Source: Sedimentisphaera cyanobacteriorum (GTDB lineage: Bacteria > Planctomycetota > Phycisphaerae > Sedimentisphaerales > Sedimentisphaeraceae). Taken from it: DNA of 32,000 bases. The notes under the pieces are model-generated. The model saw only the letters and a program-made list of their open reading frames with translations. It was not told the DNA's origin and ran no database searches. The DNA lies in assembly GCF_001997385.1 (NCBI RefSeq), contig NZ_CP019633.1:1110001-1142000 (forward strand), written 5' to 3'. This document shows, piece by piece, positions 6,550 to 30,281 of the stretch. Numbering within the stretch: the first letter of the stretch is position 1; each line of letters starts with the position of its first letter. The translations under genes and the position numbers were made by a program.

Positions 6550-6978
6550 TTATCCAGCCGGGTAGAGGTAATCCGGTATTTTCATCGGCTTGCCTTTACT
6601 GTCAACACAGGCTACGATTGTTTTGCCCTCAGCGACTGTCAGCTTTGTATCAGCCCTGAAAAGCGTGTATGTATGCTCAATTTTGGCCTTTGTAACATTA
6701 CTGCATTCAGTTTTGAGCGTAAGCTGCTGGTCGTAGTATGCAGGCCTTCGGAATTTCACCTGAATCTCAGCAACCACCATCCTGCAGTTATTCTCCTCTA
6801 AAAATGAATACGCCATTCCGTTCTCACGCAGCAGCTCTGTTCGGCCTATCTCAAAGTATATTGGATAAACGCTGTTGTGTACTATTCCGCCCTGATCTGT
6901 TTCGGAGTATCTGGGCACAATTTCAGTTTCTGTTACTGGTTTGTGTATTTTACCTGAAGACATTATAATATAACTCAT
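6550..6978 (-). CDS. Acyl-CoA thioesterase, YbgC/4HBT hotdog family
   Basis: VPRYSETDQGGIVHNSVYPIYFEIGRTELLRENGMAY matches the 4HBT/YbgC N-terminal catalytic region (xxTD..G.V.). The start is uncertain: ATG at 6978 or 6963. The ORF-track extension to 7056 is Phe/Asn-rich and overlaps yacG. Confidence 0.8.
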   Translation of the reverse strand: MSYIIMSSGKIHKPVTETEIVPRYSETDQGGIVHNSVYPIYFEIGRTELLRENGMAYSFLEENNCRMVVAEIQVKFRRPAYYDQQLTLKTECSNVTKAKIEHTYTLFRADTKLTVAEGKTIVACVDSKGKPMKIPDYLYPAG

Positions 6979-7040
6979 AAATTTTTGATTTATTGTTTTT
7001 CTCTTGCCAAAAAGACATAGATTGTTAAAGAATATAAAAA

Positions 7041-7235
7041 ATGAGAAGTTATGCAAATAAAAATGTGTTTTCCTGCAAGAAATGCGGAAAAGAGATCGCC
7101 GGACTGAAAGAAAACCCCCATTTCCCGTTCTGCAGCAAGAGGTGCAGATATATGGATCTGGGCAGCTGGCTCAGCGAGGAATATACATTGGAAAAGCAAG
7201 AGCAGGAATATTTTGATACCGGAGAACAATTATGA
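7041..7235 (+). CDS. yacG: DNA gyrase inhibitor YacG (zinc ribbon)
   Basis: 64 aa. CKKCGKEI...PFCSKRCRYMDLGSWLSEEY matches the YacG signature CxxC...PFCSxRCxxxDLGxW. Confidence 0.8.
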   Translation: MRSYANKNVFSCKKCGKEIAGLKENPHFPFCSKRCRYMDLGSWLSEEYTLEKQEQEYFDTGEQL

Positions 7236-8542
7236 ACAGCGAATCCGGCACTAACAGATGTCTCAGTGTTTTTTTTAGAAACCTATACTTCACCCAAATA
7301 TTCAAGGCCTTCAGAGTTGCTATAAACCCTTCGAGGCTTTTCATAGCCTTTCTCGGGGTAATACTTCTTATAGCCTCAGGCTATCTCCTTCAAAACCTTG
7401 AGAGAGAAGTGAAAATAATTAATAAAGAGGAGGCTGAGAAATTTCACCCGGAAGTTGCCGACGTTAGCGAAGGCAGCTCTCCAATAACGGAGATAGATGT
7501 ATATCTAAGCAAGCCCCACGAACTGCACAAATTCGCGAATGCAGAGTTCAGCAGGGAGATAGGCGTTTTCAGGGCTTTGGCTTGGAAGGTCTCGGGCAGC
7601 ATCAATTACATCACTCTGGAAAGCGTAAAGCTCAATGCCCTCGGTATTTTTACAGAGCTTGGCAAGCTTGCCAAAACATTTTTCTGGTCTGTTAAATTTT
7701 ACCCGCTGTTCGCAATCCCCTATTATCTTCTTTCAGTTTGTGTGCTTGCCTTTTTCGGAGGGGCGGTATGCAGAAGCGCGGCTATAGAGCACTGCTCAGG
7801 CACGAAAACCGGTCCTGGAGCAGGTCTCAGGTTTGCTTATGAAAAGGTCTGGGATATGCTTTGTGCCCCTCTTGCTCCAATCGTGCTTATGATATTTCTC
7901 GGGTTTATAATATTTCTTGCAGGAGCGGCCTGCCGACTGCCTGCGGTGGGAGATTTTATCTTCGGTTTCTGCGCAGTATTCGGGCTGATAATCGGGTTCG
8001 TAATAACGCTTATTCTCATAGGTTTTATTGCAGGCGTGCATCTGATGGCTCCTACTATTGCAGTGGAAAATTCAGATTTCAACGAGGCGGTAAACCGTTC
8101 ATACGGCTATGCCTATACAAAGCCTTGGTATCTGCTTTTCTATTCGCTTATAAGCATATTTTACGGGGCAATATGCTATATGTTTGTTAGGCTTTGCGCA
8201 TACCTAATGCTCAGAATCACTTACGCATTCTTTGAAGTTTCAGCCCTAAGCGGAGACTGGGGGCTCAGGGAACATTGGGCAAGGCCGGTATTCTTCAACC
8301 TCAGCGGGACGATGGGTTCAGGCACAAATTTCGGCTCCGAACATTTGCTTCTGAATATTGCAATAATACTTGTAATCAGCGCTATCGCAAGCTTTATGGT
8401 AAGCTTCTACTACTGCTGTTCGACTATCATATATACACTGCTTAGAAAAAAGGCAGACAGTGAGCCCATAGATAAAATATTCCTTTTCTCAGAAAACAGG
8501 AAGCATGAATTGTCAGGAAAAGATGCAAAGCAAGAAAGCTGA
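7232..8542 (+). CDS. Polytopic integral membrane protein, unknown function
   Basis: 436 aa with several long hydrophobic segments. The ATG overlaps the yacG stop (ATGA at 7232..7235) and is preceded by GGAGA. Confidence 0.7.
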   Translation: MNSESGTNRCLSVFFRNLYFTQIFKAFRVAINPSRLFIAFLGVILLIASGYLLQNLEREVKIINKEEAEKFHPEVADVSEGSSPITEIDVYLSKPHELHKFANAEFSREIGVFRALAWKVSGSINYITLESVKLNALGIFTELGKLAKTFFWSVKFYPLFAIPYYLLSVCVLAFFGGAVCRSAAIEHCSGTKTGPGAGLRFAYEKVWDMLCAPLAPIVLMIFLGFIIFLAGAACRLPAVGDFIFGFCAVFGLIIGFVITLILIGFIAGVHLMAPTIAVENSDFNEAVNRSYGYAYTKPWYLLFYSLISIFYGAICYMFVRLCAYLMLRITYAFFEVSALSGDWGLREHWARPVFFNLSGTMGSGTNFGSEHLLLNIAIILVISAIASFMVSFYYCCSTIIYTLLRKKADSEPIDKIFLFSENRKHELSGKDAKQES

Positions 8543-8543
8543 A

Positions 8544-9620
8544 TCAGCGGTATGTTCTGAGCATATCGAGAAGGCTGGCCATATCCTGATATAACGGCGC
8601 CTCGAAGCTCATCCTCTCCCCAGTTCGGGGGTGGTTTATCTCGAGCCAGCCTGCATGGAGGGCTTGGCGGTTAATCAGAATATCCTGCGGGCTCGGCAGT
8701 TCATTCTTAATCTGCCAAGGGTAAACAACCTTCCCGCCGTATATACGGTCTGCAACTATCGGATAGCCCAAATGAGACATATGAACGCGAATCTGATGCG
8801 TTCTGCCTGTGTGTATGTCTATTTCCACATACGCATAGCCGTTGAACCTCTCAAGCACCTTATAAACCGTAATAGCCTTTTTCCCCTCTTCTGAACGGAC
8901 GGCGAATTTCTCACGAACTGTTGGGTGCGGGCCGATCATATTCTTTATCATATCGCTGTCGAGCTCAGGGGTGCCGTGCACTACAGCAAGGTATTTTTTC
9001 TTTGTAGAGCGGTTCTTGAACTGCTGGGCAAGGTTGTACTGGGCATCGTCGTTTTTAGCAACGATAATGCAGCCCGTAGTGTTTTTATCCAGCCTGTGTA
9101 CTATCCCGGGACGCATCTTCTCACTGCCGGAAGAAAGCGTTTTGCAGTGGTATGCAAGGGCATTTACAAGAGTGCCGGACTTGTAGCACCTCGCAGGGTG
9201 CACCACCATCCACGGCATTTTATTCACTACGATTATATCATCATCTTCATAGAGAATGTCAACAGGTATATCTTCAGGCACAACTTCCTGATCTACAGGA
9301 GGAGGCAGAGTAATTTGAATTATATCATCCTGATTAAGGCGGTGAGATATCTTTACCGGCTCGGCGTTGACAAGAATCTCTCCTGAACGAATCAGCCTTT
9401 GAACTAGAGTCCTTGAAAAGCAGTTGAACCGTGTGCTCATATACTGGTCTATACGCCGGAATTTGAGATTCGGACCTACCTTGAGGCAGATCTGCTCGCC
9501 GCCCTGGTAATTATCCAAAAGAATCTGGAGCTCAGTAGCGTTAGCAAACCTGCCTTCAGGCGTCCAAATCTGGTTGTCTTCTATATCTGTCTGATTGCGA
9601 TGCTTTTCGCTGGTATTCAT
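8544..9620 (-). CDS. rluD: RluA-family 23S rRNA pseudouridine synthase (RluD-like) with N-terminal S4 domain
   Basis: HRLDKNTTGCIIVAKN (catalytic Asp motif) and GRTHQIRVHMSHLGYPIVADRIYGG. An S4-like segment, RIDQYMS...SRTLVQRLIRSGEILVN, is present. Confidence 0.9.
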   Translation of the reverse strand: MNTSEKHRNQTDIEDNQIWTPEGRFANATELQILLDNYQGGEQICLKVGPNLKFRRIDQYMSTRFNCFSRTLVQRLIRSGEILVNAEPVKISHRLNQDDIIQITLPPPVDQEVVPEDIPVDILYEDDDIIVVNKMPWMVVHPARCYKSGTLVNALAYHCKTLSSGSEKMRPGIVHRLDKNTTGCIIVAKNDDAQYNLAQQFKNRSTKKKYLAVVHGTPELDSDMIKNMIGPHPTVREKFAVRSEEGKKAITVYKVLERFNGYAYVEIDIHTGRTHQIRVHMSHLGYPIVADRIYGGKVVYPWQIKNELPSPQDILINRQALHAGWLEINHPRTGERMSFEAPLYQDMASLLDMLRTYR

Positions 9621-9703
9621 AACTGTGTGAGGTTAGAATTAAAATAAATAATCTTTGACGCCGGCTTACGTATGAGGACGCCACGCATAATTCTTACCTC
9701 AAA

Positions 9704-10375
9704 TCAGGAACTTTGTTCATTTTCCTGCTCAGGAGCATTTTCAGCAAAATTGAAATCGGTTTTCAAATCTGAAATGAATTTTAATCTTTTCTCAGCAAGC
9801 TTAGGTAAAGCCGTATCGGCATATTTCTCGCTCGTAACGAGCTTGCCGAGGATGTTTGAAGCCTGATCAAACTGTTCAAGGTCTATCCTGCAAAGGGCGA
9901 TTCCAAATTTGGCCATCCCGTCCACAAGCGGGTCTTCTTGAGCAGTTTTTTCGGCCTTTTTGTACATCTCGAGCGCCTCATTTATCTCGTTTTTTTCTGC
10001 TCCCTGTTTCCAGATTGAAGCACGCATCGCATCAGCGGCCTTAACGTAAGCAAACCCCCTCTGCACGGGAGAGGTGAGATTATCTGCCTTAGAGATCGCA
10101 TCTTCTATCAGCGGGTCCAGAGCGCTTGGCTCTGCCTCACCCTGCCTGATTTCGCCGAGTTTGGTATTAACCTGCTGGAATATATCATTAACCGCCGCCT
10201 GCTGCTTAACATCCGGCCTTACAGGCTCTTCCTTGGCAAGCCACATAATTCCCGCTGCCACTATAAGGCAAATGCTGATTATTTCCCTTATATATTTCTT
10301 TATAAACCCAGGCGCTTTTTTGATAAATTCCTCAAAATCGTTACGCTTTAACTCATGGCGTTCTTCAGAATCCAT
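9704..10375 (-). CDS. Membrane-anchored TPR-like protein (YfgM-like architecture)
   Basis: 223 aa. It has a short charged N-terminus, a single TM (IISICLIVAAGIMWL) and a helical repeat-like periplasmic part. The family call rests on architecture only. Confidence 0.45.
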   Translation of the reverse strand: MDSEERHELKRNDFEEFIKKAPGFIKKYIREIISICLIVAAGIMWLAKEEPVRPDVKQQAAVNDIFQQVNTKLGEIRQGEAEPSALDPLIEDAISKADNLTSPVQRGFAYVKAADAMRASIWKQGAEKNEINEALEMYKKAEKTAQEDPLVDGMAKFGIALCRIDLEQFDQASNILGKLVTSEKYADTALPKLAEKRLKFISDLKTDFNFAENAPEQENEQSS

Positions 10376-10578
10376 TATTCAACCCTTATTAAACATCATA
10401 TTTAAATTCGATTACAAAACGGTTATTATAGAAACTTTGCTTTTGGCTTGCAATACTTGTTTAACACTTATAAAATTTAACTGGATTACAGATTACGAAA
10501 ACGCTAAAACCTCTGCACGCTTTTTTTCGTACTTATCGGCGGAAAAAGGATTAGCAGAATCAGCAACAGGAAAATAAT

Positions 10579-12369
10579 ATGCAAAGAAAAAATTTTTTAT
10601 TTATTGCCCTTTCAGCCTCTTTACTCCTTGCAGCAGGCAGCTTCTGCAAGGGTTCAGACATAGACACTTCAAAATATATGCCTCTTAAAGAAGTTAAGGC
10701 GGGTATGGAGGGTTATGCCCTTAGCGTTTACAAGGGCACGGAAATTGAAAAATTTCCCATCAGAGTTGTCAGTGTGATGGAAGACTACCGCCCCGGGCAG
10801 GACGCCTTCCTGATAATGGGCACCGGCAAGAAATTTAAGCATACAGGGCCGGTTGCCGGTTGCAGCGGTTCTCCTGTAGTAATAGAAGGCCGGATAGCCG
10901 GAGCACTGGCCTTTGGCTGGTCTTTTCCGAAAGACCCCCTTTACGGCGTAACGCCTATAGAAGAAATGCTCGCTATAGACAAGCGCAAAAAACAGCTTAA
11001 AATAATCGAATCTCCTTCAAGCATAGCCAGCCTTACAGACGACAAACTCAACTACAAGGCAATCTGCGGAAAGATTAATGCTAAAGCTTCAAGTATGCTC
11101 GGAGGTGAGGGGAGCCTGATATGCTCATCATTCAGGCCCAACACCATCTCAGGTCTTGAAGGGCTCTCGGCAGATAATATGCTTTACAATGCAGCTGGTG
11201 CGTCCAGCACTTCAAACGCCTTGCCGAATTTCGAACCCGGGTCTGTGATATGTGTTCCGCTTGTGGACGGGGATATAAAAATGAGCGTAGTGGGCACACT
11301 AACCGCAGTTGAAGACGATAAGATATTCGCATTCGGCCATCCTTTCACGGGTGAAGGCAGGGTAGAACTGCCCTTCTCGGCCGGCGTTGTGCATACGGTT
11401 GTGGCCAGTCAGCAGAGGTCGATGAAGCTTGCAAGCTCAACAATACCTGTAGGCACGCTTACAGCAGATGAAGAAACCGGCATATACGGCGAGATCGGCA
11501 AAAAACCGCCGCAGATAAAAATGACTTCAAAAATCTTTTCATACGACACCCCGAAAACAAAGGTTTATGAATGCCTGCTCGCAGACCATCAGATTTTCTC
11601 GCCAATGCTTGCTCAAAGCATTATCACCAGCACCGCTGCTAAAAATTCAGAGCCTCCCGAATTCCACTCAGTTTACTACAAAGCGGTATTAAACGTGGAA
11701 GGAATCGATGATATTGTTATCGATAATATATCAAGCGGTTCAGGGATGAGAACCGCTGCCTACGAGGTGGGCGGAATTTTAGGCTTGCTTCAAAGCAACG
11801 AATTCCACAGGCCGAAAATACACAGCATAGATTTCACCTCTCGAATTGAAAACAAAAACATACAAGCCAAGATCACTTCTGCAGAAGTTAGCGATCTGGA
11901 AATTCAACCGGGGGACAATGTAAATATCGATCTTATGCTTGAGAAAGAATTTGAAAAGGAAAAGAGAGCTCAAATTTCTCTGAAGATTCCTGAAGACACC
12001 TCTCCGGGAGAAAAGGAGATTCTTATCTCAGGGACCACTCAATACAAGGCGTTTGTAAATAAAATGGAGCCTGACAGACCGCTCTACGACGATTTCGACT
12101 CAATGATCAGCGCTATTAGAAAAGACATGAGCTTCGGGAAGCGCATTGGGCTGTATGCCTATATGAAAACCCAGCGCAGCGGCATAAGCTACGGCAAATT
12201 CAATATGGCAAACCTGCCCGACAGCAGAGCAGCTGTTATCGCTAATCCAAAACGGAATTATAAAGTACAGCCTGTTTACGACTGGATAAGCAGCAAACTT
12301 GACGTACCATACATCATAAACAACAGTATAAAAGTAAAAATAGAGATACTAAACAAGAGCGAAAAGTAA
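10579..12369 (+). CDS. Secreted peptidase S55 (SpoIVB-like) domain protein
   Basis: Signal peptide MQRKNFLFIALSASLLLAAGS. GPVAGCSGSPVVIEGRIAGALAFGW resembles the S55 catalytic-Ser block (GMSGSP). GTLTAVEDDKIFAFGHPF resembles the His block, and GVTPIEEML is also S55-like. Confidence 0.6.
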   Translation: MQRKNFLFIALSASLLLAAGSFCKGSDIDTSKYMPLKEVKAGMEGYALSVYKGTEIEKFPIRVVSVMEDYRPGQDAFLIMGTGKKFKHTGPVAGCSGSPVVIEGRIAGALAFGWSFPKDPLYGVTPIEEMLAIDKRKKQLKIIESPSSIASLTDDKLNYKAICGKINAKASSMLGGEGSLICSSFRPNTISGLEGLSADNMLYNAAGASSTSNALPNFEPGSVICVPLVDGDIKMSVVGTLTAVEDDKIFAFGHPFTGEGRVELPFSAGVVHTVVASQQRSMKLASSTIPVGTLTADEETGIYGEIGKKPPQIKMTSKIFSYDTPKTKVYECLLADHQIFSPMLAQSIITSTAAKNSEPPEFHSVYYKAVLNVEGIDDIVIDNISSGSGMRTAAYEVGGILGLLQSNEFHRPKIHSIDFTSRIENKNIQAKITSAEVSDLEIQPGDNVNIDLMLEKEFEKEKRAQISLKIPEDTSPGEKEILISGTTQYKAFVNKMEPDRPLYDDFDSMISAIRKDMSFGKRIGLYAYMKTQRSGISYGKFNMANLPDSRAAVIANPKRNYKVQPVYDWISSKLDVPYIINNSIKVKIEILNKSEK

Positions 12370-20342: not shown

Positions 20343-21119
20343 TTAGAACTCTTCTTGCCAGTTTACTGCAAGATTCGCAAAATCTTCCATATTAACTGCA
20401 CCGTCTCTGTTGGTATCAGCACGTTCATAAAAATCATTAACTGAAGAAGCCTGATTTCTAAGCCAAACTGCAGACAGCTCGAGCAAATCTAACAAATCCA
20501 CTTTACTGTCAACAGCCAGATCACCCAGCAAAGGTTCAGCATTGAAAACCAAAGTAAAAGGTTCAGAAGACTCATACTTGCCTTCAGAATCTGTCATCTT
20601 CCAAGTAACCCAATACAAACCGGTCTGATCAACAGCCTGAAAAGAAAGGTGCATATGCGGATCGTTTCTAAGCTCATGGATTTCGCTATGGCTGAAAGAC
20701 TGCTCGGCTTGACTAATAGTGAAAGATGGATAGTTTTTGTGCACAACCCTCAACCCCGTAGATATTGAAATGCACTCTATACTAATCTTATAATCCTCAT
20801 CAGGACTGCCATTAAGGGCTCTCTGCGGGTCATAGGTATAGCCTGCATCGGGGTTTGTCTGCTGGAATTGATCGAAACCGGGCTCACCAATACGCCATTT
20901 ATAGCTCGGAAAAATACTTTCTGTAAGCAAGTAATACCAGCCTGTTGAGCTGCGGTATTTTTGGCGGCAGTCTGCAAAGAGCCTGTTATCGTCTTCTGTG
21001 TCTGCGATGCCGTCCTCATTTACTCCTATAATAATATGATCCAAAGGGCATTCCGCAGAAGCTGCTGAAAATGTCAGCAGAAATAATGAAACTGAAAGAA
21101 GTATTTTTTTGAATTTCAT
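20343..21119 (-). CDS. Secreted protein, paralog of 21896..22714, with dockerin-like C-terminus
   Basis: Signal peptide MKFKKILLSVSLFLLTFSAASA, then ECPLDHIIIGVN. The C-terminal DLAVDSKVDLLDLLELSAVW ... ADTNRDGAVNMEDFANLAVNW resembles two dockerin-type repeats. A GAGGA RBS is present. Confidence 0.7.
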   Translation of the reverse strand: MKFKKILLSVSLFLLTFSAASAECPLDHIIIGVNEDGIADTEDDNRLFADCRQKYRSSTGWYYLLTESIFPSYKWRIGEPGFDQFQQTNPDAGYTYDPQRALNGSPDEDYKISIECISISTGLRVVHKNYPSFTISQAEQSFSHSEIHELRNDPHMHLSFQAVDQTGLYWVTWKMTDSEGKYESSEPFTLVFNAEPLLGDLAVDSKVDLLDLLELSAVWLRNQASSVNDFYERADTNRDGAVNMEDFANLAVNWQEEF

Positions 21120-21138
21120 AATTTTTCCTCAAAATTTT

Positions 21139-21894
21139 TTACGGGTTTTCAGGCCATTTTGGCGCCGATTCAGGATACCAGAAGCATTTATCAGGCCAAG
21201 CATAAGTTGATTCAAACTCGAGAGTTTCTGCATGACCGTCAACGAATAGATAATTTGATTTTCCTATATGCCTGTCCCAAGCAATGAACTTTTTAGCATA
21301 CTCAACTGATCCTTCCCAAGATTCTGGATGGATATGATCTGCCAAATGGAAATTTTTCGTATTCGGCGCTTCGCTTATCCAAATGCAGTGCATGGGTTTA
21401 TGTATTGAGTCAATACTGTTGTATATGTTCGAGTCCCCTTTGTACCTGTAATTCACAGGGTCAAGAAGCGCATTTACTGCAAAGCTGGAATACCTTCTGC
21501 TTTTCTGCTGCTCCAAGGGCAGGCTCCAGTCCACGAAATTATCTGCCTTATCGCTCGGACAGCGAAATAGAAGCTGCTCGCCTGTATAGTCAGACAAAAC
21601 CTTAAGCCAATAATCATCTGGATTTGTTATATGGCAGGAACTTGGAGGTAAATTGTTGTTATGGTCTATCAAATAAGACTGTACAGCTATCCCCATCTGC
21701 CTCATATTGCTCCTGCATACAACCTTTTTTGCCCGCTTTCTTGCAGCATTCAATGCGGGCAGAAGAATCCCTAAAAGCAGGGCAATAACCGAAATAACCA
21801 CAAGAAGCTCAATTAGACTGAAACCCTGAGCTCTTCCTGCGATATTTTTTATATTGCCCTGCCGAGCCGTCTTATGATTCGTTAAGCTCTTCAT
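21139..21894 (-). CDS. Prepilin-type N-terminal cleavage/methylation domain protein with H-X9-DG motif (DUF1559-like pseudopilin)
   Basis: From the ATG at 21894: MKSLTNHKTARQGNIKNIAGRAQG|FSLIELLVVISVIALLLGILLPAL is a class III signal (G-1, E+5). The C-terminal HIGKSNYLFVDGHAE fits H-X9-DG exactly. The ORF-track N-terminal extension overlaps the upstream gene. Confidence 0.85.
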   Translation of the reverse strand: MKSLTNHKTARQGNIKNIAGRAQGFSLIELLVVISVIALLLGILLPALNAARKRAKKVVCRSNMRQMGIAVQSYLIDHNNNLPPSSCHITNPDDYWLKVLSDYTGEQLLFRCPSDKADNFVDWSLPLEQQKSRRYSSFAVNALLDPVNYRYKGDSNIYNSIDSIHKPMHCIWISEAPNTKNFHLADHIHPESWEGSVEYAKKFIAWDRHIGKSNYLFVDGHAETLEFESTYAWPDKCFWYPESAPKWPENP

Positions 21895-21895
21895 T

Positions 21896-22714
21896 TCAAC
21901 GTCTTCTTCTAAGCAGCCACATGCCGCCCGCACTGATAAAGGATAGTGATATTGGCTCAGGCACTGTAACAAATGAGAATTCATAATCATCGGAAGCACT
22001 GTACAATCCACCTTCATCATAAGCAGAAAAAGTTGCAGTAACCTCCTGCCCCATCTCGGGAGTAAGCCAGAAATTAAAGGTCATATGGTCATGAATACCC
22101 CATGCATTTTTCTCGTCCAGCCACTTCTTGGAAAGCTGATAGCTGTCTCCATCCTCCATAAGTGCAGGAGTGTCGTTGGGAAGAAGCATAAAGAAGTCTT
22201 CGGAGGCTACAGAAGTATCTTCTCGTTTGAGAAAAATGTCCCATTCGGGTGTTATGTTCTGGTTTACACTGTCCAAATTCCATTTTCCCTGAGGCCCGTG
22301 CGCAGAATGCCAACCGTCGAGATGCTGAACACCTCCGGGATCGCCGTATCCGCCTGCTTCACTGTACATAAAGCTGCTTGACCACAGCTGTTTCCCTGAA
22401 GAACCGCCCTTCATAACGGGCGAGCCGCCATCCATTACCGGAGTGAGCCTTAGGAATGTACTCCCGTCTGCATTGCTCCATTGAGGCCAGCCGGGAGTAG
22501 ACGCTTTGGGGTGAGAAGGCGGCAGAGAAAAAAACCAAAGCTTATTATTATCTGCTGAATTTGTATCTTCAGCAAGCTCAGAGCTGCTAGGTGCAGACCA
22601 GTCCGGTCTCCAAGTTGGATTTACTCCTATATGAGTATGAGCCAAAGGACAATCTGCATATCCTGAAGATATAAACAGACAAAACAAAAACGACGCCAAT
22701 ATCTTAAATTTCAT
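21896..22714 (-). CDS. Secreted PEP-CTERM sorting-domain protein, paralog of 20343..21119
   Basis: Signal peptide MKFKILASFLFCLFISSGYA, then DCPLAHTHIGVN. The C-terminus VPEPISLSFISAGGMWLLRRRR is PEP + TM + Arg cluster, the PEP-CTERM pattern. An AGGAGA RBS is present. Confidence 0.8.
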   Translation of the reverse strand: MKFKILASFLFCLFISSGYADCPLAHTHIGVNPTWRPDWSAPSSSELAEDTNSADNNKLWFFSLPPSHPKASTPGWPQWSNADGSTFLRLTPVMDGGSPVMKGGSSGKQLWSSSFMYSEAGGYGDPGGVQHLDGWHSAHGPQGKWNLDSVNQNITPEWDIFLKREDTSVASEDFFMLLPNDTPALMEDGDSYQLSKKWLDEKNAWGIHDHMTFNFWLTPEMGQEVTATFSAYDEGGLYSASDDYEFSFVTVPEPISLSFISAGGMWLLRRRR

Positions 22715-22815: not shown

Positions 22816-23112
22816 TTAGTATGGAGGAGCTCGGGGATTGATACTGATCAGCTGGATTTGCTCAATCAGGTTTTGTGAGATGATTTCCACTTCCAGTGAG
22901 ATATAATGCTGAAAGATTACAACATCCGGAAAAGCCTCAATGATTTTTCCAGGACTGATTAATAATTGCTGGCAGATTGGGCAGTGGCCGCAGTCGTGCT
23001 CAGATGAATCTGCAAGAAAAAGGTGCCATATAAATAATGTTCCGCTTAAATTAGCGAAAAACAATACCAAAGCGGCAATACATAATAATTTTTTGGTATT
23101 ATTTATTCTCAT
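22816..23112 (-). CDS. Small membrane-anchored protein with His/Cys cluster (putative metal-binding), unknown family
   Basis: 98 aa with N-terminal TM LLCIAALVLFFANLSGTLFIWHLFL followed by EHDCGHCPICQQ (22972..22998). The start overlaps the Fur-family gene end by 14 nt. Confidence 0.55.
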   Translation of the reverse strand: MRINNTKKLLCIAALVLFFANLSGTLFIWHLFLADSSEHDCGHCPICQQLLISPGKIIEAFPDVVIFQHYISLEVEIISQNLIEQIQLISINPRAPPY

Positions 23113-23548
23113 ATAATCCCTGAGCGAAGCATTCCGGCCCTATGCCTTCAATTACAGTTTTCTGCCTCAGAAATACCAAATCATCCCTTCGGCTTTCTAT
23201 GAGAGGGATTTTTTCGTCATAAAGGCAGATTACCCTGCCGCATTTTATGCACTTAAAGTGCGGATGACACTGATGTTTGCTGCATCTGTCGGCCAGTTCA
23301 TATTCACAATCGCGTTTATCAAGATAAGCCTTGTGAACAAGGCCCTTTTCACAGAACCTCTCAAGGATTCTGTAAACCGTAACCTTATCAATTTTTCGTG
23401 AGCCTAATGCACTTATTATATCACCCCTCGCCAATGGATTCTCAGCGCTGAGAAGAACTTTTAAAACTTTAATCTGTGATTTAGTACAGTTCAGCCCGTA
23501 TTCTTTCAGCGTCTTCTCCGGACTATCATTTTTTCTTCTTAAATCCAT
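23099..23548 (-). CDS. Fur-family transcriptional regulator
   Basis: Winged-helix part TKSQIKVLKVLLSAENPLARGDIISAL...KVTVYRILERFCEKGLVHK, and metal site HQCHPHFKCIKCGRV (HxHxxCxxC). The ATG at 23548 (MDLRRKN) has an AGGA 8 nt upstream. Upstream alternative starts fall inside the palindrome. Confidence 0.8.
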   Translation of the reverse strand: MDLRRKNDSPEKTLKEYGLNCTKSQIKVLKVLLSAENPLARGDIISALGSRKIDKVTVYRILERFCEKGLVHKAYLDKRDCEYELADRCSKHQCHPHFKCIKCGRVICLYDEKIPLIESRRDDLVFLRQKTVIEGIGPECFAQGLYENK

Positions 23549-23565
23549 AGTTTTTCCTGTTAGCA

Positions 23566-23590
23566 TAAAATGCAATATAGTTGCATTTTA
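23566..23590. promoter_or_regulatory. Perfect 10-5-10 inverted repeat, candidate operator upstream of the Fur-family gene
   Basis: TAAAATGCAA-tatag-TTGCATTTTA, 18 nt upstream of the preferred Fur start codon. Confidence 0.45.
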
Positions 23591-23717: not shown

Positions 23718-24986
23718 TTATTCTGCTCTGAGCACTTCGATAGGGTTCTGCTTTGCGGCTTTCATAGCGGGGTATGTACCGAAAACGATACCGATAGAGC
23801 ATGCAATAGCAAACGCAACTATCATAATCCAGTATGAATAAACGACCGGCCAGCCTGCATAGTAAGAGACAGACTCTGCGAGGCCTATGCCCGTAGCAAT
23901 CCCCACAACAGACCCGAGGGCAGTTAGGGTAACCGTTTCCACGAGGAACTGGAGAAGTATATCTTCCTTTTTTGCACCAAGAGCTCTTCTTGTGCCGATC
24001 TCTTTGCGTCTTTCGTAAACGCTTGCGAGCATAATATTCATAATCCCCACCCCGCCTACAATAAGCGAGATGCCGGCTATCGAGCCCATTACCACGGTAA
24101 ATATCTGCTGGGTTTTCTGCCTCTGCTTAAATAGCGAAAACGGCACTATAACCTCCCAGTCTTTCTGATCCTTATGAACCTTTACCATATAGTTCTTTAA
24201 TCTTCTGGCCGTATTGTTTATGAACTTAAGCTCTTTTACCTTCGCTATTATCAAATCATAATGAACAACGGTAATATTAACGCTTAGTCTCTTCATATCA
24301 TACGAATAACCGTCATAGAGATCGGTAATAGTTTTCTGCGGCGCAATTATCATATCGTTGACGCTTCCCAGATTCGCCAGCTCAGAGCCTGAGGAGTCTT
24401 CGATTTCTCCAACTACCCTCCAGATCGAGTTTTTTGCCCTTATGGTTCTGCCAATAACATTTCTGCAGTCAAGGCCGAAATACTTCCTCTTAACATTCTT
24501 GCCCACAACGCATATTCTTGACTGAGTTTCTGCATCTACAGGTGAGAGCCATCTGCCTCTTATAAGCTCGGCTGATGTGGAATCCAGAAATGTTCTCTCC
24601 GCTCCAACCAGCTTCAAATCGAGCAGTGCAGTTCCTGAACGCACCTCCATTCTCGTATCAGTTACAGTTGTGATTTTGTCGATATTATCAAGCATACGAA
24701 AATGCTGCAGGTCTTTATCTGTGATGCCGAACTGCTCAACCATACTCTGATTCTGCCCGGAAGTTTCACTGCCCACATCAGAAGGCTTTTTGCTGTAAAC
24801 GATAATGTTCTCAATACCCATAGACTGAATCTGCGCGAGGGACTCCTCACGGGCTCCTTCAGATATGGCAAGCATAGCTATCACGCTGGCAGTGCCGAAA
24901 ATAACACCCAGAGAGGTAAGCCCGCTTCTAACCTTATGCTTGAAGAGATTATGCAGGGAAAGGCCGTATAGATCACTGAGTTTCAT
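23718..24986 (-). CDS. ABC transporter permease, MacB/FtsX family with large periplasmic domain
   Basis: From the ATG at 24986: MKLSDLYGLSLHNLFKHKVRSGLTSLGVIFGTASVIAML, then a ~230-aa periplasmic region. The FtsX block RRKEIGTRRALGAKKEDILLQFLVETVTLT is present. The gene overlaps the ATPase gene by 14 nt. Confidence 0.85.
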   Translation of the reverse strand: MKLSDLYGLSLHNLFKHKVRSGLTSLGVIFGTASVIAMLAISEGAREESLAQIQSMGIENIIVYSKKPSDVGSETSGQNQSMVEQFGITDKDLQHFRMLDNIDKITTVTDTRMEVRSGTALLDLKLVGAERTFLDSTSAELIRGRWLSPVDAETQSRICVVGKNVKRKYFGLDCRNVIGRTIRAKNSIWRVVGEIEDSSGSELANLGSVNDMIIAPQKTITDLYDGYSYDMKRLSVNITVVHYDLIIAKVKELKFINNTARRLKNYMVKVHKDQKDWEVIVPFSLFKQRQKTQQIFTVVMGSIAGISLIVGGVGIMNIMLASVYERRKEIGTRRALGAKKEDILLQFLVETVTLTALGSVVGIATGIGLAESVSYYAGWPVVYSYWIMIVAFAIACSIGIVFGTYPAMKAAKQNPIEVLRAE

Positions 24987-25662
24987 AATCCGCTTCCACC
25001 TTCCCGTCTCTGAGATACACAACCCTGTCGAAAAAACTCTCGTACTCGGGGTTGTGTGTTACTGCGATAATAGTTGTTCCGTTTTCATTGAGCTCCCGGA
25101 ACAGATCCATAACTTCATTCCCTGTATTCTCGTCAAGATTACCCGTAGGCTCATCTGCAAGAATGAAAGTGGGGCTGTTGGATAGAGCCCTCGCTATTGC
25201 CACTCTCTGCCTCTCGCCTCCTGATAGCTCGTAGGGGCGGTGCTTGAGCCTGTGGCCAAGACCCAGACGCTCAGCCAGTTCCTCAGAGATTTTTCCCCGC
25301 TTCCTTTTTTGCATATTACCGTAAACGAGGGGCACCTCAATATTCTGAGCAACACTGAGATAACCGAAAAGGTTGAAGCTTTGAAAGATGAAACCGATTT
25401 TTTTGTTTCGCAGCTCTGCGAGCTTTCTGTCTCCAAGGGTGCTTGTATTGGAGCCTTCAAGGCTGTAGCTTCCTTTTGTGGGCAAATCAAGGAGACCCAG
25501 CACGTTCAGCAAGGTTGATTTGCCGGAGCCGGAGGCCCCCATAATCCCAAGATACTCTCCAGAATCTACAGAAAAGTTTATCCCCTTGAGCACCGGAACG
25601 TTTCTTGACTTGGAGATCTGGTAGCTTTTATGGATTTCACTGAGCTCTATAACAGAGTTCAT
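24973..25662 (-). CDS. ABC transporter ATP-binding protein (MacB/LolD-type)
   Basis: Walker A GASGSGKST, signature LSGGERQRVAIARAL, Walker B ILADEPTGNLD. Confidence 0.95.
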   Translation of the reverse strand: MNSVIELSEIHKSYQISKSRNVPVLKGINFSVDSGEYLGIMGASGSGKSTLLNVLGLLDLPTKGSYSLEGSNTSTLGDRKLAELRNKKIGFIFQSFNLFGYLSVAQNIEVPLVYGNMQKRKRGKISEELAERLGLGHRLKHRPYELSGGERQRVAIARALSNSPTFILADEPTGNLDENTGNEVMDLFRELNENGTTIIAVTHNPEYESFFDRVVYLRDGKVEADYETQ

Positions 25663-25685
25663 TGTCTTCTCACACTCAATTAATT

Positions 25686-27164
25686 TTATTCTACAGGCTC
25701 AAACAGGCATACCTTGTCGCCGGCGTCAAGCCCTTTTTCTATGCTTACAAAATCATCATCTGCCGGGCCTATCTCCACATAAACTACCTCGGGGCTGCCG
25801 TTTTCTGTTCTATATACGAACAACCGTCCGTCTTTCTCGAAAACAGCCTCTATCGGAACTGCCAGAACATCCTTGAGCCTTTGTGAGATAATCTTCGCCT
25901 GAACATTCATACCAGTAACCATACGTTCGTTTTTTTCCTCCTCGGGAACGGTGATTCTGGTTTCATATATCTTAGGTGATGCAGGATCCCAGCGGAGCTG
26001 GTTTACCGGCAGAGGAGATATATCCGAAACTTCACCCTTAACAGAAAGCCCCTGTATAGACTCCACAGTGATAACAGCCTCGTCTCCCATATTAACTCTG
26101 GAACGGTAAATCTCAGGAAGATCCATATCTATCATAAGCTGCGAGAGATCCGGTATGGTAAGCAGGACCTCTCCCCTTCGAACATCCATACCTTCAGTAG
26201 GCTCTTCATCCCGCCACCTGTCGTCTGTATCTCCATAAAGAACTACTCCATCCACGGGCGATGTAAGCTCCATCATAGAGAGATATTCCCTGTGGCGTTT
26301 GAGCTCTTTCTCGAGCCTTTGAATGTCGTTTTTATGCCTCTGGATCTGATTCTGCTTTTGGATCAAGCTTGAATCTGCGCGAACCTGAGTCTTTTTCAAA
26401 TCCAGCCTGCTCTGTTCAAGATTATTCTCCAGAGTTGTAATTCTGTTGCGGTAGGTGTATCTTTTGAAGATCTTATCATCAATCAGAACGTTTTCGTAAT
26501 TAATCTCTTCACGCTCGATTCTGCCTTTCAGCGTTTCGAGGTGGTCTTCCGCCTCGTTCTTTTCTTCCTGATTGTCATACACTGTTGACTGATGCTCTTC
26601 GTAGGCCTCCTCATAGGCCTGCTCAGCTTCATCCAGCGCTTCACGTGCATTCTCCACCTCAACAGTCTGCTCGTCTCTGAGCTTCGGGCCTTCAAGCCTC
26701 AAAAACTTCGAAAGCTCTTCTTCTGCGTCCGTAACTCTGTCACGTGCCTGCCTGAGATTTGCCTCATTCTCGCTTTTCTGAATTTCCAGCTCTTCCTTGG
26801 CAATGCTGAGCTCTTTTCTGGAATTCTCAAGCTGATTTTCATATTCATCAACCTGTGAGACAAGCTCTTCATCGTCAAATTTAACCAAAACCTCGCCTTC
26901 CTCAACCTCTGAATTTTCGTCGATAACCCAGCTAATCTGAGTTCGGTACGAAGCCTCGTATCTTATTTTATGGTTCTTAAGCGAGTTTACTGTGCCCGAC
27001 TCTTCCACCCCTATAACTATATCGCGGGGTTCAACGGTGAAGTATCGGTCGAGGTGGCTGGAATCTTTAGAGCTGCTGCTCTGTTTTTTTGCATCCTCGC
27101 AGCCAGACACTGAAATCAGCAAACCAGCTGCAAGAATTATTAAAGCAGTGGTTTTACGATTCAC
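25686..27164 (-). CDS. HlyD/MacA-type periplasmic adaptor (membrane fusion protein) with long coiled-coil hairpin
   Basis: Lipobox-like LISVSGC. A ~200-aa E/K/R/Q-rich heptad region is present. C-terminal beta-barrel/MP blocks: VLAVPIEAVFEKDGRLFVY ... VEIGPADDDFVSIEKGLDAGDKV. The GTG start overlaps the secretin stop (GTGA), with GGAGAG upstream. Confidence 0.85.
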   Translation of the reverse strand: MNRKTTALIILAAGLLISVSGCEDAKKQSSSSKDSSHLDRYFTVEPRDIVIGVEESGTVNSLKNHKIRYEASYRTQISWVIDENSEVEEGEVLVKFDDEELVSQVDEYENQLENSRKELSIAKEELEIQKSENEANLRQARDRVTDAEEELSKFLRLEGPKLRDEQTVEVENAREALDEAEQAYEEAYEEHQSTVYDNQEEKNEAEDHLETLKGRIEREEINYENVLIDDKIFKRYTYRNRITTLENNLEQSRLDLKKTQVRADSSLIQKQNQIQRHKNDIQRLEKELKRHREYLSMMELTSPVDGVVLYGDTDDRWRDEEPTEGMDVRRGEVLLTIPDLSQLMIDMDLPEIYRSRVNMGDEAVITVESIQGLSVKGEVSDISPLPVNQLRWDPASPKIYETRITVPEEEKNERMVTGMNVQAKIISQRLKDVLAVPIEAVFEKDGRLFVYRTENGSPEVVYVEIGPADDDFVSIEKGLDAGDKVCLFEPVE

Positions 27165-28384
27165 TTTTTCTCTCCGTTATCTTCTTCGATTTTTCTGTTC
27201 GGAAACAGTGCGTTTGAATTTCTGATCTGATCGCCGGTTTTTCTGATTGCCTCGGCCTGTTTTTCGATGTCAACAAAAGTGCCTACGGAATTCTGCACAA
27301 CTTTAACTTTCATCACAAAAATAAGCTGCTTGATTATCTTTGAATCATCCTTAGACCTGAAAAGCTCTCCAATAAGAGGCAGATCTCCGAAGAAAGGAAC
27401 TTTACTGTCCTGCTTGAGGTCTTCAGTTGAGTAAAGCCCGCCGAGCATAATAATCTCGCCGTCCTGAACGGTAAGCTCTGTTTCCACGTTCCTGATTGTT
27501 ATTACGGGCGTCTGGGTTTTGTTGAATTCTTCGTAACGTGTAACCGTGCTGACCTCGGGATTAACCTGAAGCTTTACGGTCTTTTCGTTGATTCTGGTGG
27601 GGGTTACCTCAAGGCGTATGCCCGTTCTTTTATACTTGATGTCGGTATTAACGGTGCTTCCGGTTGTGGAGGTTGACTGGATCGGAAGATCCTCACCAGT
27701 AACGATGTTGCCCCTTTTATTCAGCGATACCACAATATTCGGAGAAGAGAGGATTTCTGCATCATTGGCCTTCTTGAGCCAGTTTGCAAGATAATTGAAG
27801 GTATTGATCTGCCCTTCAACGCCTACAGAATAGGGCGAGAAATCCAGCATATCCGGTTTCTGCGTGTAGTTTGTATCCGGGTCTGCCCCCGGGGGACGAA
27901 GGGATTTGGATTCTTCATCGTAAACAAAGTTCAGCTGCTGACGGTAATCATCTCTGGCGGAAACCTCTATCACCTTGGCCTCAACGAGTATCTGAGGTAT
28001 AGGCACATCCATTGCAATAATCACCTCCCTGATCTGCTCGATCCGCTCGGTCGAATCACTGACGATTACCATATTCTTCTCTTCGCTCTCTTCGATAAGC
28101 CCGTTCCGGCTTATCGCTGCCTCAAGGCCGTCTGAAACCTCTTTGCAATCTGAATATCTGCACCTGTAAACAAGCGTTGAGAGCCCGTCTCCACCTTCTA
28201 CAACCTTTACATAAGGCTCTTCCTGGATCTCGGTAATATTCGCTTGAGGATTGATTTCTTCACTGAAGAGATTTTCAAGCTGCCTGATGACTTCCTTCTT
28301 GCCTTCTGCGGGTTCTTCGTTTGCAGCGAAGACAAAAGAAGAGCTAATGAATAAAGACAAAATCAAAATTCTAAAAAATTCCAT
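27161..28384 (-). CDS. Secretin-family outer-membrane channel protein (one N-domain + secretin core)
   Basis: Signal peptide MEFFRILILSLFISSSFVFA from the ATG at 28384 (GGGG RBS; alternative starts at 28423/28432). The Secretin_N-like block is VIVSDSTERIEQIREVIIAMDVPIPQILVEAKVIEVS. The secretin core is ILSSPNIVVSLNKRGNIVTGEDLPIQ...TGIRLEVTPTRI...VPFFGDLPLIGELFRSKDDSKIIKQLIFVMKVKVV. Confidence 0.8.
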   Translation of the reverse strand: MEFFRILILSLFISSSFVFAANEEPAEGKKEVIRQLENLFSEEINPQANITEIQEEPYVKVVEGGDGLSTLVYRCRYSDCKEVSDGLEAAISRNGLIEESEEKNMVIVSDSTERIEQIREVIIAMDVPIPQILVEAKVIEVSARDDYRQQLNFVYDEESKSLRPPGADPDTNYTQKPDMLDFSPYSVGVEGQINTFNYLANWLKKANDAEILSSPNIVVSLNKRGNIVTGEDLPIQSTSTTGSTVNTDIKYKRTGIRLEVTPTRINEKTVKLQVNPEVSTVTRYEEFNKTQTPVITIRNVETELTVQDGEIIMLGGLYSTEDLKQDSKVPFFGDLPLIGELFRSKDDSKIIKQLIFVMKVKVVQNSVGTFVDIEKQAEAIRKTGDQIRNSNALFPNRKIEEDNGEKK

Positions 28385-28481
28385 ATTTACCCCAAAATAA
28401 GTTTTTGTTTTTATTTTGCGCATTTGCTGCAATGAAAGTTTAGTACTAATTACCTAAATCTGCATATCTAGCAATATGCCG

Positions 28482-28511
28482 ATAATACTAAAAGATAAAA
28501 AAAACTTTCAA
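28482..28511 (-). promoter_or_regulatory. Candidate promoter of the secretin/ABC operon (TTGAAA-18 nt-TATTAT on minus strand)
   Basis: The reverse complement of 28506..28511 is TTGAAA, and of 28482..28487 is TATTAT. The 18-nt spacer is slightly long. The palindrome GCATAT-ctagca-ATATGC at 28462..28479 lies just downstream. Confidence 0.3.
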
Positions 28512-28518
28512 GCATTTT

Positions 28519-29460
28519 CTACCTTTTTGCTTTTATTTTAATCATAACGAGCAGCTGCTTGAATACACTTCTTACAATTCGGGCGAAACTGAAAGAAATT
28601 GGAATAGTTTGAGCCTTCTGAAAACCACACCCTGCAACCAGCTCGGGATTATCTCCAATTATATAAGACTGCTTACCCTTAAAATCAGGGTTTTGTTCGA
28701 GATAATATTTCACAAGAGGCAATTCTTCTATGCGGTAATCAAGCAGACGTGCGCAGGCGAGCTCGCAGCTGAGGGCAGAGCTGCCCGATAGAGTAATGCC
28801 GAGATTTCTGGCGTTTCCGTTTAGAGGCCCTCTTCCTTCCATGCATACAATCCCGTCTATAAGATTAAAGACGGGTGCAGTTTTTTCGTATATGCCCAGT
28901 ATTAGTGCGGCAAAATCTTCGCAGGTTTTCCCCCTTTTGAAGTGCCAGTAGGCCTTTCTCTTTCCGCAAACTGTTCCAAACATATTTTTGAATGCAATGG
29001 TTGCACCGAGCTGCTGATGCGCCTTTAGCTTTGGAAGATTTATAATTGCATCAGCTTCTAAAGCATCTTTTGAGATATTCACATCTATCTCGGCATAGGG
29101 CAGGCGGGTTTTAACAGAGCTGCCGAATGTTTTGATCTCAACACCGATTTCCCTGAGCTGCCCTGCTGCCCCGAGCACCTCAAGGCAGTGCTCAGCGTTA
29201 GACCAAGCGGGAGAATCTGCCACGCAAACCCGTGCTCCAAAATCTTTGAGAAGCTTAGCTGTTTCTACAATGAAAGCAGGGTGCGTCTGGCTTGGTCTTT
29301 CAGGGGGATGAGGCGCAATCAAGTTCGGCTTCAAAATCACCCTGTCTGAGCGGGAGATGAGCTTATCCAGCCCGCCGGCAAGTTCGAAATGCCTTGCGAT
29401 CGTTTCTCTCAGCTTATCGGGCTGATAGTCTTTGCAGTATATAAGCGATGCTGGTTTCAT
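28519..29460 (-). CDS. DUF362 domain protein
   Basis: 313 aa. RVILKPNLIAPHPPERPSQTHPAFIVE...ARVCVADSP and IVCMEGRGPLNG match the DUF362 pattern (v.iKPN...; ..meGnGP..G). The ATG overlaps the upstream stop (ATGA). Confidence 0.65.
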   Translation of the reverse strand: MKPASLIYCKDYQPDKLRETIARHFELAGGLDKLISRSDRVILKPNLIAPHPPERPSQTHPAFIVETAKLLKDFGARVCVADSPAWSNAEHCLEVLGAAGQLREIGVEIKTFGSSVKTRLPYAEIDVNISKDALEADAIINLPKLKAHQQLGATIAFKNMFGTVCGKRKAYWHFKRGKTCEDFAALILGIYEKTAPVFNLIDGIVCMEGRGPLNGNARNLGITLSGSSALSCELACARLLDYRIEELPLVKYYLEQNPDFKGKQSYIIGDNPELVAGCGFQKAQTIPISFSFARIVRSVFKQLLVMIKIKAKR

Positions 29461-30281
29461 AATACGGCAGTGCAGGCTATAACATAAAAATTGAATCTGG
29501 ATTCATCTTCCCTGTGCTGAAAGAGCTCTTTAGCAATGCTCTTATCCTGAAGAGGCAGGCTTTCAGGCATCATAACAATAAAACTTCCCCGCCTCATCCT
29601 GCAGCTTAATGCGCAGCTTTCGAATTCCGTTTTGCCGGCGTCTTTTAGCTTAGGGCGGATAATCTCCAGCGATTCAGCAAGGCCTGCCCCGTTGTCGAAA
29701 AAGGGCAGGAGAACAGCTATGTCGTTGCCGCCCCGCCGGATGGTAGAAAGGGTGATTCCGTATCTGCCTGAGCAGAGCTGCCTGTCTTGGGCAGTATTGG
29801 TTGAATCTACATAAATAACCGTTCTGAGCCCGTAAACTTCACGCAGATACACATCATCACTGCCCTCTTCATAAACCACAATATAAGTTTTGTTTTTAGA
29901 CTCAGCGCCGGCCTCTTTAACCGCATCCGAGAGAATCTTCAAATCTCTGCTTTCTCCGGCTTTGTAAAGCAGGCCGTTCTTTTCAGCACTCTCATTGATT
30001 TGGGTTTCGCTCTGAGCTTCAATCTCATTTACTGGTATTCGAAGCTTGGCGAAATTCATCTTTTCAGCGCTGTATGTTATCACTCTGTATCTAATCTGAG
30101 ACTGATTTCTCTGCTTGGGCTTAACATCAGCTGGGGTTTTCATTCGTGAGAAGTCTGTTATTTTCAGGCCTTCGTAATAGCCGGCCTGCCCTGCTTTCAT
30201 ACTCGGCATATTGCAGCCTGCAAGACCCGCCGAGATAAAAAAGGCAATCGATAAATGGATTAAGGCTTTATATATTCTCAT
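29457..30281 (-). CDS. Hypothetical lipoprotein
   Basis: MRIYKALIHLSIAFFISAGLAGC has a lipobox (LAGC). 274 aa, no family recognised. Confidence 0.6.
   Translation of the reverse strand: MRIYKALIHLSIAFFISAGLAGCNMPSMKAGQAGYYEGLKITDFSRMKTPADVKPKQRNQSQIRYRVITYSAEKMNFAKLRIPVNEIEAQSETQINESAEKNGLLYKAGESRDLKILSDAVKEAGAESKNKTYIVVYEEGSDDVYLREVYGLRTVIYVDSTNTAQDRQLCSGRYGITLSTIRRGGNDIAVLLPFFDNGAGLAESLEIIRPKLKDAGKTEFESCALSCRMRRGSFIVMMPESLPLQDKSIAKELFQHREDESRFNFYVIACTAVL

Follow-up and report, generated by a model that had tools for sequence, protein, structure and literature searches.

A short GspD-like secretin gene in the TolC-family slot of a MacAB-type pump operon of Sedimentisphaera cyanobacteriorum and its relatives

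Four co-directional open reading frames (ORFs) on the minus strand of a 32-kb stretch of the Sedimentisphaera cyanobacteriorum genome (hereafter the window, meaning the whole stretch of DNA analyzed) correspond to a secretin, a periplasmic adaptor, an ATP-binding cassette (ABC) ATPase, and a permease. An earlier note on this DNA, made from the sequence alone, had placed the secretin in the outer-membrane-factor position of a MacAB-type pump, and all four ORFs that it described are present, on the same strand and with the same boundaries. The genes and a promoter candidate upstream of them are the following.

27161..28384, minus strand: short secretin, 407 amino acids (Pfam Secretin, AlphaFold2 model, Foldseek)
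25686..27164, minus strand: MacA-like periplasmic adaptor, 492 amino acids (Pfam, NCBIfam, AlphaFold2 model, Foldseek)
24973..25662, minus strand: ABC ATPase of the MacB nucleotide-binding domain/LolD type, 229 amino acids (Pfam, NCBIfam, motifs in the translation)
23718..24986, minus strand: MacB-type permease, 422 amino acids (Pfam, NCBIfam)
28482..28511, minus strand: sigma-70-like promoter candidate, TTGAAA-18-TATTAT (10 of 12 consensus matches)

The junctions between the genes can be read directly in the sequence and are those that had been reported before. The TGA stop codon of the secretin overlaps the GTG start of the adaptor (GTGA at 27161..27164), the gap between adaptor and ATPase is 23 nucleotides (nt), and the permease ATG at 24986 produces a 14-nt overlap with the ATPase gene. 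With junctions of this kind, the four genes read as one operon. The start of the secretin at ATG 28384 is backed by a 407-amino-acid orthologue from S. salicampi (P0001, 93% identical), and the end coordinate of the region, 28432, is merely the TTG of the longest ORF and not the secretin start. The promoter candidate lies in an AT-rich gap of 134 nt 5′ of the secretin, a place that would suit the start of an operon; sigma-70-like sites in this region do not exceed the shuffle expectation, and 28482..28511 is a consensus match only. No TolC/OEP, type II secretion system (T2SS), type IV pilus (T4P), or Tad genes were found anywhere in the 32-kb window by Pfam and NCBIfam matching together with OEP and GspE/PilB searches, which bears out, and extends to the whole window, the previously noted absence of T2SS and T4P ATPase and platform genes from the operon. 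A search for riboswitches and leader RNAs gave no Rfam match anywhere in the window.

The secretin matches PF00263 with 144.4 bits against a cut-off of 27.5 bits (E value of 3e-42), covering model positions 2 to 169 of 169, so that the predicted Secretin match is a strong one, and its AlphaFold2 model matches structures of T2SS GspD. The C-terminal secretin motifs described before are also present in the translation. It starts with a signal peptide (residues 1 to 20, MEFFRILILSLFISSSFVFA, followed by AN, as read from the sequence). The AlphaFold2 model of the monomer (mean predicted local distance difference test [pLDDT] of 72) contains a conserved helix (27 to 40), a single alpha/beta N3-like domain (59 to 125, pLDDT of >90), a double-walled secretin core (131 to 363), and a C-terminal helix (373 to 389). 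The single Secretin_N-like module announced in the earlier note stands as one N3-like domain in the model; in Pfam, Secretin_N scores 26.9 bits, slightly under its cut-off of 28.2 bits. Domains N0, N1, and N2 are lacking according to Pfam, NCBIfam, and the AlphaFold2 model. Along the same lines, the GspD equivalog TIGR02517 gives 178.8 bits, about half of its cut-off of 351.35, with only model positions 319 to 592 of 600 aligned. In Foldseek, GspD structures were the best matches (E value of 1e-17), GspD, PilQ, and InvG all being matched with a probability of 1.0, and the secretin family profile aligned best to residues 294 to 588 of XcpQ (5wln). By profile and predicted structure, this is a GspD-type secretin stripped of the N0 to N2 domains that normally reach the inner membrane platform. 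Since it retains solely the N3-like ring domain and the gated pore region, the domains that dock on T2SS and T4P platforms are missing. The core, including the gate-forming part, is strongly conserved in the family, whose members are labeled “GspD” in the databases. A lipobox was found in 25 of 102 family members, which we take to be reminiscent of the liposecretin HxcQ, and the majority, including the secretin of the window, have an ordinary signal peptide.

The other three genes belong to the MacAB type, as had been proposed. The ATPase matches ABC_tran with 112 bits in Pfam, and its best NCBIfam matches are positions 1 to 224 of MacB (PRK10535, 242.7 bits) and LolD (229 bits); the Walker A (GASGSGKST), signature (LSGGERQR), Walker B (ILADEPT), and H-loop motifs are intact in the translation. 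The permease matches MacB_PCD (92.5 bits) and FtsX (82.6 bits) and has four transmembrane helices, with the periplasmic MacB_PCD domain located between the first and the FtsX bundle formed by the other three. It scores 180 bits against positions 258 to 647 of PRK10535 and 31.9 bits against LolCE, for which the cut-off is 362. By Pfam it is of the FtsX/MacB type and not ABC_membrane, which distinguishes the operon from type I secretion systems (HlyBD-TolC), as there is no HlyB-type exporter with fused transmembrane and nucleotide-binding domains here. The DevB and DevC models score poorly in the operon (17.6 and 20.7 bits).

The adaptor matches HlyD_D23 and HlyD_3 in Pfam, in keeping with the HlyD/MacA type assigned to it earlier, and scores 92.6 bits with RND_mfp, slightly under the cut-off of 94.9, and 50.7 bits with type_I_hlyD, for which the cut-off is 208.65 bits. 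Its AlphaFold2 model (pLDDT of 87) includes lipoyl, beta-barrel, and membrane-proximal domains and an alpha-hairpin of approximately 95 plus 95 residues (99 to 193 and 199 to 296), with a length of about 140 Å if 1.5 Å is counted for each of 95 residues. The best structural matches found by Foldseek were MacA chains within MacAB-TolC (9qgy_G and 5nik_D). The window adaptor is a lipoprotein by its signal (LISVSG followed by C22), and because just 10 of 48 relatives have such a signal, the remainder apparently having an N-terminal anchor helix, lipidation is not a defining feature. It is 100% identical to S. cyanobacteriorum P0121, annotated as “YknX”; elsewhere the database label is “RND adaptor.” In classical pumps, the tip of the adaptor hairpin docks on TolC. 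Here the mature protein shows its lowest conservation at the tip, and no R-x3-L-x6-S motif (RLS-type TolC docking) was found there.

To evaluate how widely this arrangement is conserved, we scanned one genome per GTDB species with a profile made from the secretin family alignment, which returned 523 relatives, and kept the best 80 loci. These comprised 49 Lentisphaerota, 9 Kiritimatiellota, 9 Verrucomicrobiota (mostly Opitutales), 9 Planctomycetota, 1 Firestonebacteria, and 3 unassigned or suspect loci. Considering only the 57 loci in which 4.6 kb or more of sequence follows the secretin, a complete colinear cassette was found 3′ of the secretin gene in 55, spread over Lentisphaerota, Kiritimatiellota, Opitutales, and Planctomycetota. 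The adjacency of a secretin to HlyD/MacB genes, taken up by the earlier note from a single locus, thus recurs in four lineages of the Planctomycetes-Verrucomicrobia-Chlamydiae (PVC) superphylum. All of the remaining 23 loci, on shorter contigs, are compatible with the cassette save one order variant (L063), a metagenome-assembled genome (MAG) of Candidatus Firestonebacteria outside PVC, in which secretin, adaptor, and permease genes (6899..10792) follow each other with no ATPase gene between. Another copy, L071 in an alphaproteobacterial “Yoonia sp.” MAG, looks like a binning contaminant, since it is closest to the Opitutales versions. The gap between the secretin stop and the adaptor start was 55 nt or less in 71 of 71 loci, and similarity to the window proteins covaries over the loci (Spearman coefficients of 0.73 for secretin and adaptor and 0.70 for secretin and permease). 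The flanks change even where the cassette does not, and three divergent members from Lentisphaeria, Kiritimatiellia, and Opitutaceae have the same order of secretin, adaptor, ABC ATPase, and MacB_PCD-FtsX permease within unrelated surroundings. We conclude that the adjacency of secretin and pump is not due to chance.

An all-against-all clustering of the ORFs of 81 loci showed recurrence for just the four genes of the cassette and for shadow ORFs antisense to them. A fifth conserved gene, such as a substrate, pilotin, or regulator, was not found, no other ORF cluster being present in more than 12 of the 81 loci, which indicates a self-contained module with which no substrate, pilotin, or regulator travels. 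No OEP/TolC-family gene was matched in the window or in the 80 loci, and no GspE/PilB-type ATPase was located within 7 kb in any of the 80 loci or in the window. Orthologues standing beside T2SS or T4P genes, the pattern that the earlier note had named as contrary to its proposal, were accordingly not encountered at these loci. In a homologue search, about 100 short secretins (324 to 618 amino acids, median of 426) were recovered at E values of <1e-42 from Phycisphaerae, Lentisphaeria, Kiritimatiellia, Opitutaceae, and Tepidisphaeraceae; canonical GspD and PilQ proteins appeared only from about 1e-30. The boundary of the family is gradual, with a continuum of scores in a library of representatives at 50% identity, and a distant member (L089, E value of 6e-35) still has the adaptor. 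Two other short secretins of about 409 amino acids (L090, 5410..6639, E value of about 1e-31; L091, 6001..7230, E value of about 4e-29) stand alone, as neither pump genes nor T2SS or T4P genes lie in their vicinity; one of the two is located directly 3′ of rplM-rpsI.

The origin of the arrangement can be approached through the contigs of more distant adaptor relatives (21 to 28% identity), of which six were traced. An OEP/TolC-family gene was found immediately 5′ of the adaptor in five of these sister operons, which have the following composition.

L087: OEP, adaptor, ABC, MacB permease
L088: OEP, adaptor, ABC, MacB permease, in a gammaproteobacterium (Mangrovimicrobium)
L092: OEP, adaptor, ABC, MacB permease, in a Lentisphaeria MAG
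L094: OEP, then adaptor
L086: OEP-like protein of 1,118 amino acids, then an adaptor bearing EF-hands
L093: adaptor alone, the sole orphan of the six

L087, L088, and L092 share with the cassette both the gene order and the long-hairpin adaptor family, and they differ from it in having an OEP as the first gene and adaptors that fall outside the secretin-linked clade. As the first slot of the sister operons holds an OEP gene, the secretin occupies the gene slot of a TolC-family outer membrane factor, and to this extent the position given to it in the earlier note is confirmed. The closest sisters have the appearance of ordinary efflux operons, and a TetR gene accompanies one of them. Identity between sister and window proteins was 24 to 26% for the adaptor and, in both L087 and L088, 47 to 52% for the ATPase and 31 to 38% for the permease. 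The window permease is 38% identical to that of TolC-linked L087 and 39% identical to those of secretin-linked Opitutaceae; by these values, the pump parts resemble each other no less between the TolC-linked and secretin-linked groups than within them. In a rough distance-based neighbor-joining tree of a subsample of adaptors (100 bootstraps), the secretin-linked adaptors, distant L089 included, formed one clade excluding the OEP-linked ones in 83 of 100 replicates, a result consistent with a single swap from TolC to secretin. A tip turn formed by a basic residue, Gly, a hydrophobic residue, and Ser/Thr is present in three aligned TolC/OEP-linked sister adaptors (P0180, P0224, and P0169) and absent from that of the window. 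With three sisters compared, this divergence is only suggestive.

Two other features of the hairpin were considered and rejected as adaptations. Its length of about 140 Å does not compensate for the short secretin, as TolC-linked adaptors are equally long (P0224, 487; P0185, 540; and P0180, 655 amino acids), and the mid-hairpin motifs KY..LE.P (153 to 160) and K.FKRY..P (231 to 239) cannot be taken as a secretin-docking band, the Y..P part being found also in TolC-linked sisters. The traced contigs contained some further variants. L086 (3274..9019) has an adaptor (P0169) with EF-hand calcium-binding domains, as do P0179, P0194, and P0196; the 1,118-amino-acid protein 5′ of it has no Pfam match on record and resembles OEP by tblastn only, and the pair may represent an enlarged TolC-like duct with a calcium-sensing adaptor. 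The orphan long-hairpin adaptor of L093 (P0195, 1..7614, from a Planctomycetota MAG) adjoins a divergently transcribed PilM/PilO/T2SSE-type cluster, and the 13.6 kb shown contain neither an ABC pump nor an OEP or a secretin.

The loci thus display four genes of clear identity, tightly coupled, conserved across PVC lineages, with a secretin replacing the TolC-family protein in its slot. We think it probable that the operon encodes a tripartite envelope exporter of the MacAB type (type VII ABC) in which a short secretin derived from GspD takes the place of a TolC-family trimer as the exit duct. The complex, its stoichiometry, and the direction of transport are inferred from the example of MacAB-TolC. 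A MacB dimer in the inner membrane, energized by the separate ATPase, would collect cargo located in the periplasm or in the outer leaflet of this membrane, and ATP-driven mechanotransmission in its periplasmic domain would push this cargo into the tube formed by the adaptor. The hairpin barrel, about 140 Å long, could reach the periplasmic N3 ring or the vestibule of a multimeric secretin, where the adaptor would open or feed the gate, and the cargo would be released outside. The system resembles MacAB-TolC of Escherichia coli in its MacB_PCD-FtsX permease, in an ATPase of the MacB/LolD type, and in the domains of its adaptor (hairpin, lipoyl, beta-barrel, and membrane-proximal). The differences are the operon with a secretin as the outer membrane gene, the separate genes for ATPase and permease, an adaptor hairpin about twice as long, and its variable tip without the turn of the TolC-linked sisters.

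Several observations weigh against this exporter. A hexameric adaptor facing a secretin of 12 to 15 subunits implies a mismatch of symmetry and diameter for which there is no precedent. The macAB genes of E. coli function with an unlinked tolC, so that a distal TolC partner may exist here too, and the TolC-linked sister operon in a Lentisphaeria genome (L092) indicates that TolC is not absent from the superphylum. Two of the 57 loci break the cassette, L021 with the secretin alone and L080 with only secretin and adaptor. Finally, the long hairpin and the mid-hairpin motifs, being common to TolC-linked sisters, are not adaptations to a secretin.

The same lack of linkage in E. coli is the starting point of the alternative that survives best, namely, that the genes are only co-located, the secretin serving a T2SS, T4P, or Tad-like system and the pump using a TolC homologue, both encoded elsewhere. 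OEP proteins are indeed encoded in PVC genomes, the secretin is annotated as GspD, and its closest solved relatives are T2SS secretins. However, with GspD/XcpQ it shares the core and the preceding N3 domain, and it differs in having neither N0 to N2, which other secretins use toward inner membrane platforms, nor gspC-M neighbors in the window and the 80 loci. Mere co-location would also have to account for an adjacency kept in 55 of 57 loci from four lineages while all flanks change, for secretin and adaptor genes that overlap or nearly abut, for a secretin located exactly in the OEP slot of the sister operons, and for the lack of a GspE/PilB gene within 7 kb at any locus. We consider it unlikely.

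The nature of the cargo separates the exporter from a second alternative, in which the complex is real but works as an ordinary efflux pump for small molecules or antimicrobial peptides, with the secretin as a generic pore. Macrolides, peptides, siderophores, and porphyrins are known substrates of MacAB-type pumps, the cassette has no linked cargo gene, and the nearest sisters resemble standard efflux operons, including the one with TetR. On the other hand, a gated pore several nanometers wide would be costly and leak-prone for small molecules and seems odd for them in phyla that also have TolC ducts at hand, and the strong conservation of the gate-forming core suggests controlled opening for large cargo. 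We regard this alternative as unlikely too. Since the secretin pore would be far wider than TolC, the exporter that we favor would most likely handle bulky cargo, e.g., folded periplasmic proteins or peptides, acylated proteins, or glycolipids, and not small drugs. As no substrate gene is conserved beside the cassette, this cargo would be encoded elsewhere in the genome. There are parallels for such cargo in pumps with a MacB-type ABC component and an adaptor: Aat (AatPABCD) of enteroaggregative E. coli exports acylated dispersin, and DevBCA-HgdD of cyanobacteria exports heterocyst glycolipids, in both cases across both membranes, indicating that the substrates of type VII ABC pumps include more than drugs. 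These two differ from the operon described here in their TolC-family ducts, AatA and HgdD.

A third possibility is that the pump services the secretin, a Lol-like MacB machine extracting, piloting, or quality-controlling its subunits or relieving the envelope stress that it causes. The MacB family does include a lipoprotein extractor, LolCDE, and the 25 family secretins with a lipobox could be clients of such a machine. Nevertheless, most secretins of the family, the one in the window among them, have an ordinary signal peptide, and the permease is MacB rather than LolCE by its scores (180 versus 32 bits). LolCDE, with a LolC/E-type permease, works without an adaptor, whereas the cassette conserves a full MacA-like, channel-forming one. 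The replacement of OEP by the secretin in its slot also suggests an equivalent role and not that of a client, all of which makes servicing quite improbable. The last alternative, a remnant of a filamentous-phage pIV-like gene inserted beside the pump, is barely credible, because the resemblance (407 amino acids, a layout with one or two N domains, and 7ofh among the structural and sequence matches) is outweighed by the lack of phage genes in the window, by a chromosomal gene that is largely vertically inherited and conserved across phyla, and by the better match to GspD-type secretins. Short length and a reduced N-terminal region are shared with both pIV and the Tad secretin RcpA, which are among the secretin matches, but both match more weakly than GspD, and their partner genes (pI/Zot for the former; TadA to TadC and RcpB/C for the latter) are absent here.

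A MacAB-type exporter with a secretin duct has not, as far as a full-text search of open-access papers and bioRxiv could tell, been described, and that search returned no named, characterized system for the architecture, in accordance with the earlier note, which knew of none. The mentions of secretins inspected in a Chemical Reviews article on tripartite systems and in a survey of 76 families of outer membrane proteins concern other contexts. Our best reading is therefore a tripartite type VII ABC exporter with what would be an unprecedented duct. We advance only tentatively a more ambitious, two-step version, in which a distinct secretin-coupled MacB exporter arose once, when TolC was replaced by a truncated GspD-like secretin, and has since become nearly universal, as a single cassette, in Lentisphaerota, Kiritimatiellota, Opitutales, and many Phycisphaerae. 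It could then be the first secretin pathway without a type IV filament, type III secretion system (T3SS), or phage assembly ATPase and the first membrane fusion protein/ABC pump with a non-TolC duct, possibly moving folded proteins, lipoproteins, or bulky envelope cargo of other kinds out of the periplasm.

If the complex and a macromolecular cargo were confirmed, the system would merit recognition as a distinct secretion system. It would be an exception to two rules, that secretins work exclusively in type IV filament, T3SS, or filamentous-phage machines and that adaptor/ABC tripartite pumps always exit via TolC-family trimers, and outer membrane ducts would appear as exchangeable modules. 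It also raises the structural question of how an adaptor barrel of the hexamer type could dock on and gate a secretin of 12 to 15 subunits. For PVC bacteria, which are major degraders of polysaccharides in the sea and in the gut and about whose secretion little is known, the cassette is a candidate for the export of bulky exoproteins or surface lipoproteins. Cultured carriers include Sedimentisphaera spp., Coraliomargarita akajimensis, Victivallis vadensis, and Lentisphaerota strain zth2. Another consequence is the correction of a widespread misannotation, of the secretins as “GspD” and of the adaptor as “YknX” or “RND adaptor.”

The genes surrounding the operon in the window are of other kinds. 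On the 5′ side (28519..30281, minus strand), a DUF362/Npun_F2552-family protein gene overlaps by 4 nt that of a predicted lipoprotein of 274 amino acids with no family match, and neither of them is conserved beside the cassette in other genomes. Directly 3′ of the pump lies the following gene.

23099..23575, minus strand: Fur-family regulator

A perfect palindrome (TAAAATGCAA-N5-TTGCATTTTA, 23566..23590) covers the start of this gene and is probably its autoregulatory operator. No second copy is present in the window, the region 5′ of the secretin operon included. A regulatory link to the pump was rejected, given that the operator is found only at the regulator's own gene and that, over the 81 loci, this gene is not conserved beside the cassette. 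A membrane protein of 98 amino acids with a CGHCPIC motif is encoded 3′ of it, together with a group of three co-directional genes on the minus strand (20343..22714). The second of these (21139..22020) is a prepilin-like protein with N_methyl and DUF1559 domains, an H-X9-DG end, and a true start probably near 21894. As a hint to the cargo it was rejected as a coincidence, since it recurs in only five loci; DUF1559 prepilin-like genes are very abundant in these genomes. The first gene encodes a secreted protein with a PEP-CTERM-like tail (VPEP...RRRR) and the third a dockerin-bearing protein, and both have a CPL.H..IGVN motif just C-terminal to their signal peptides, which suggests that they share a paralogous domain.

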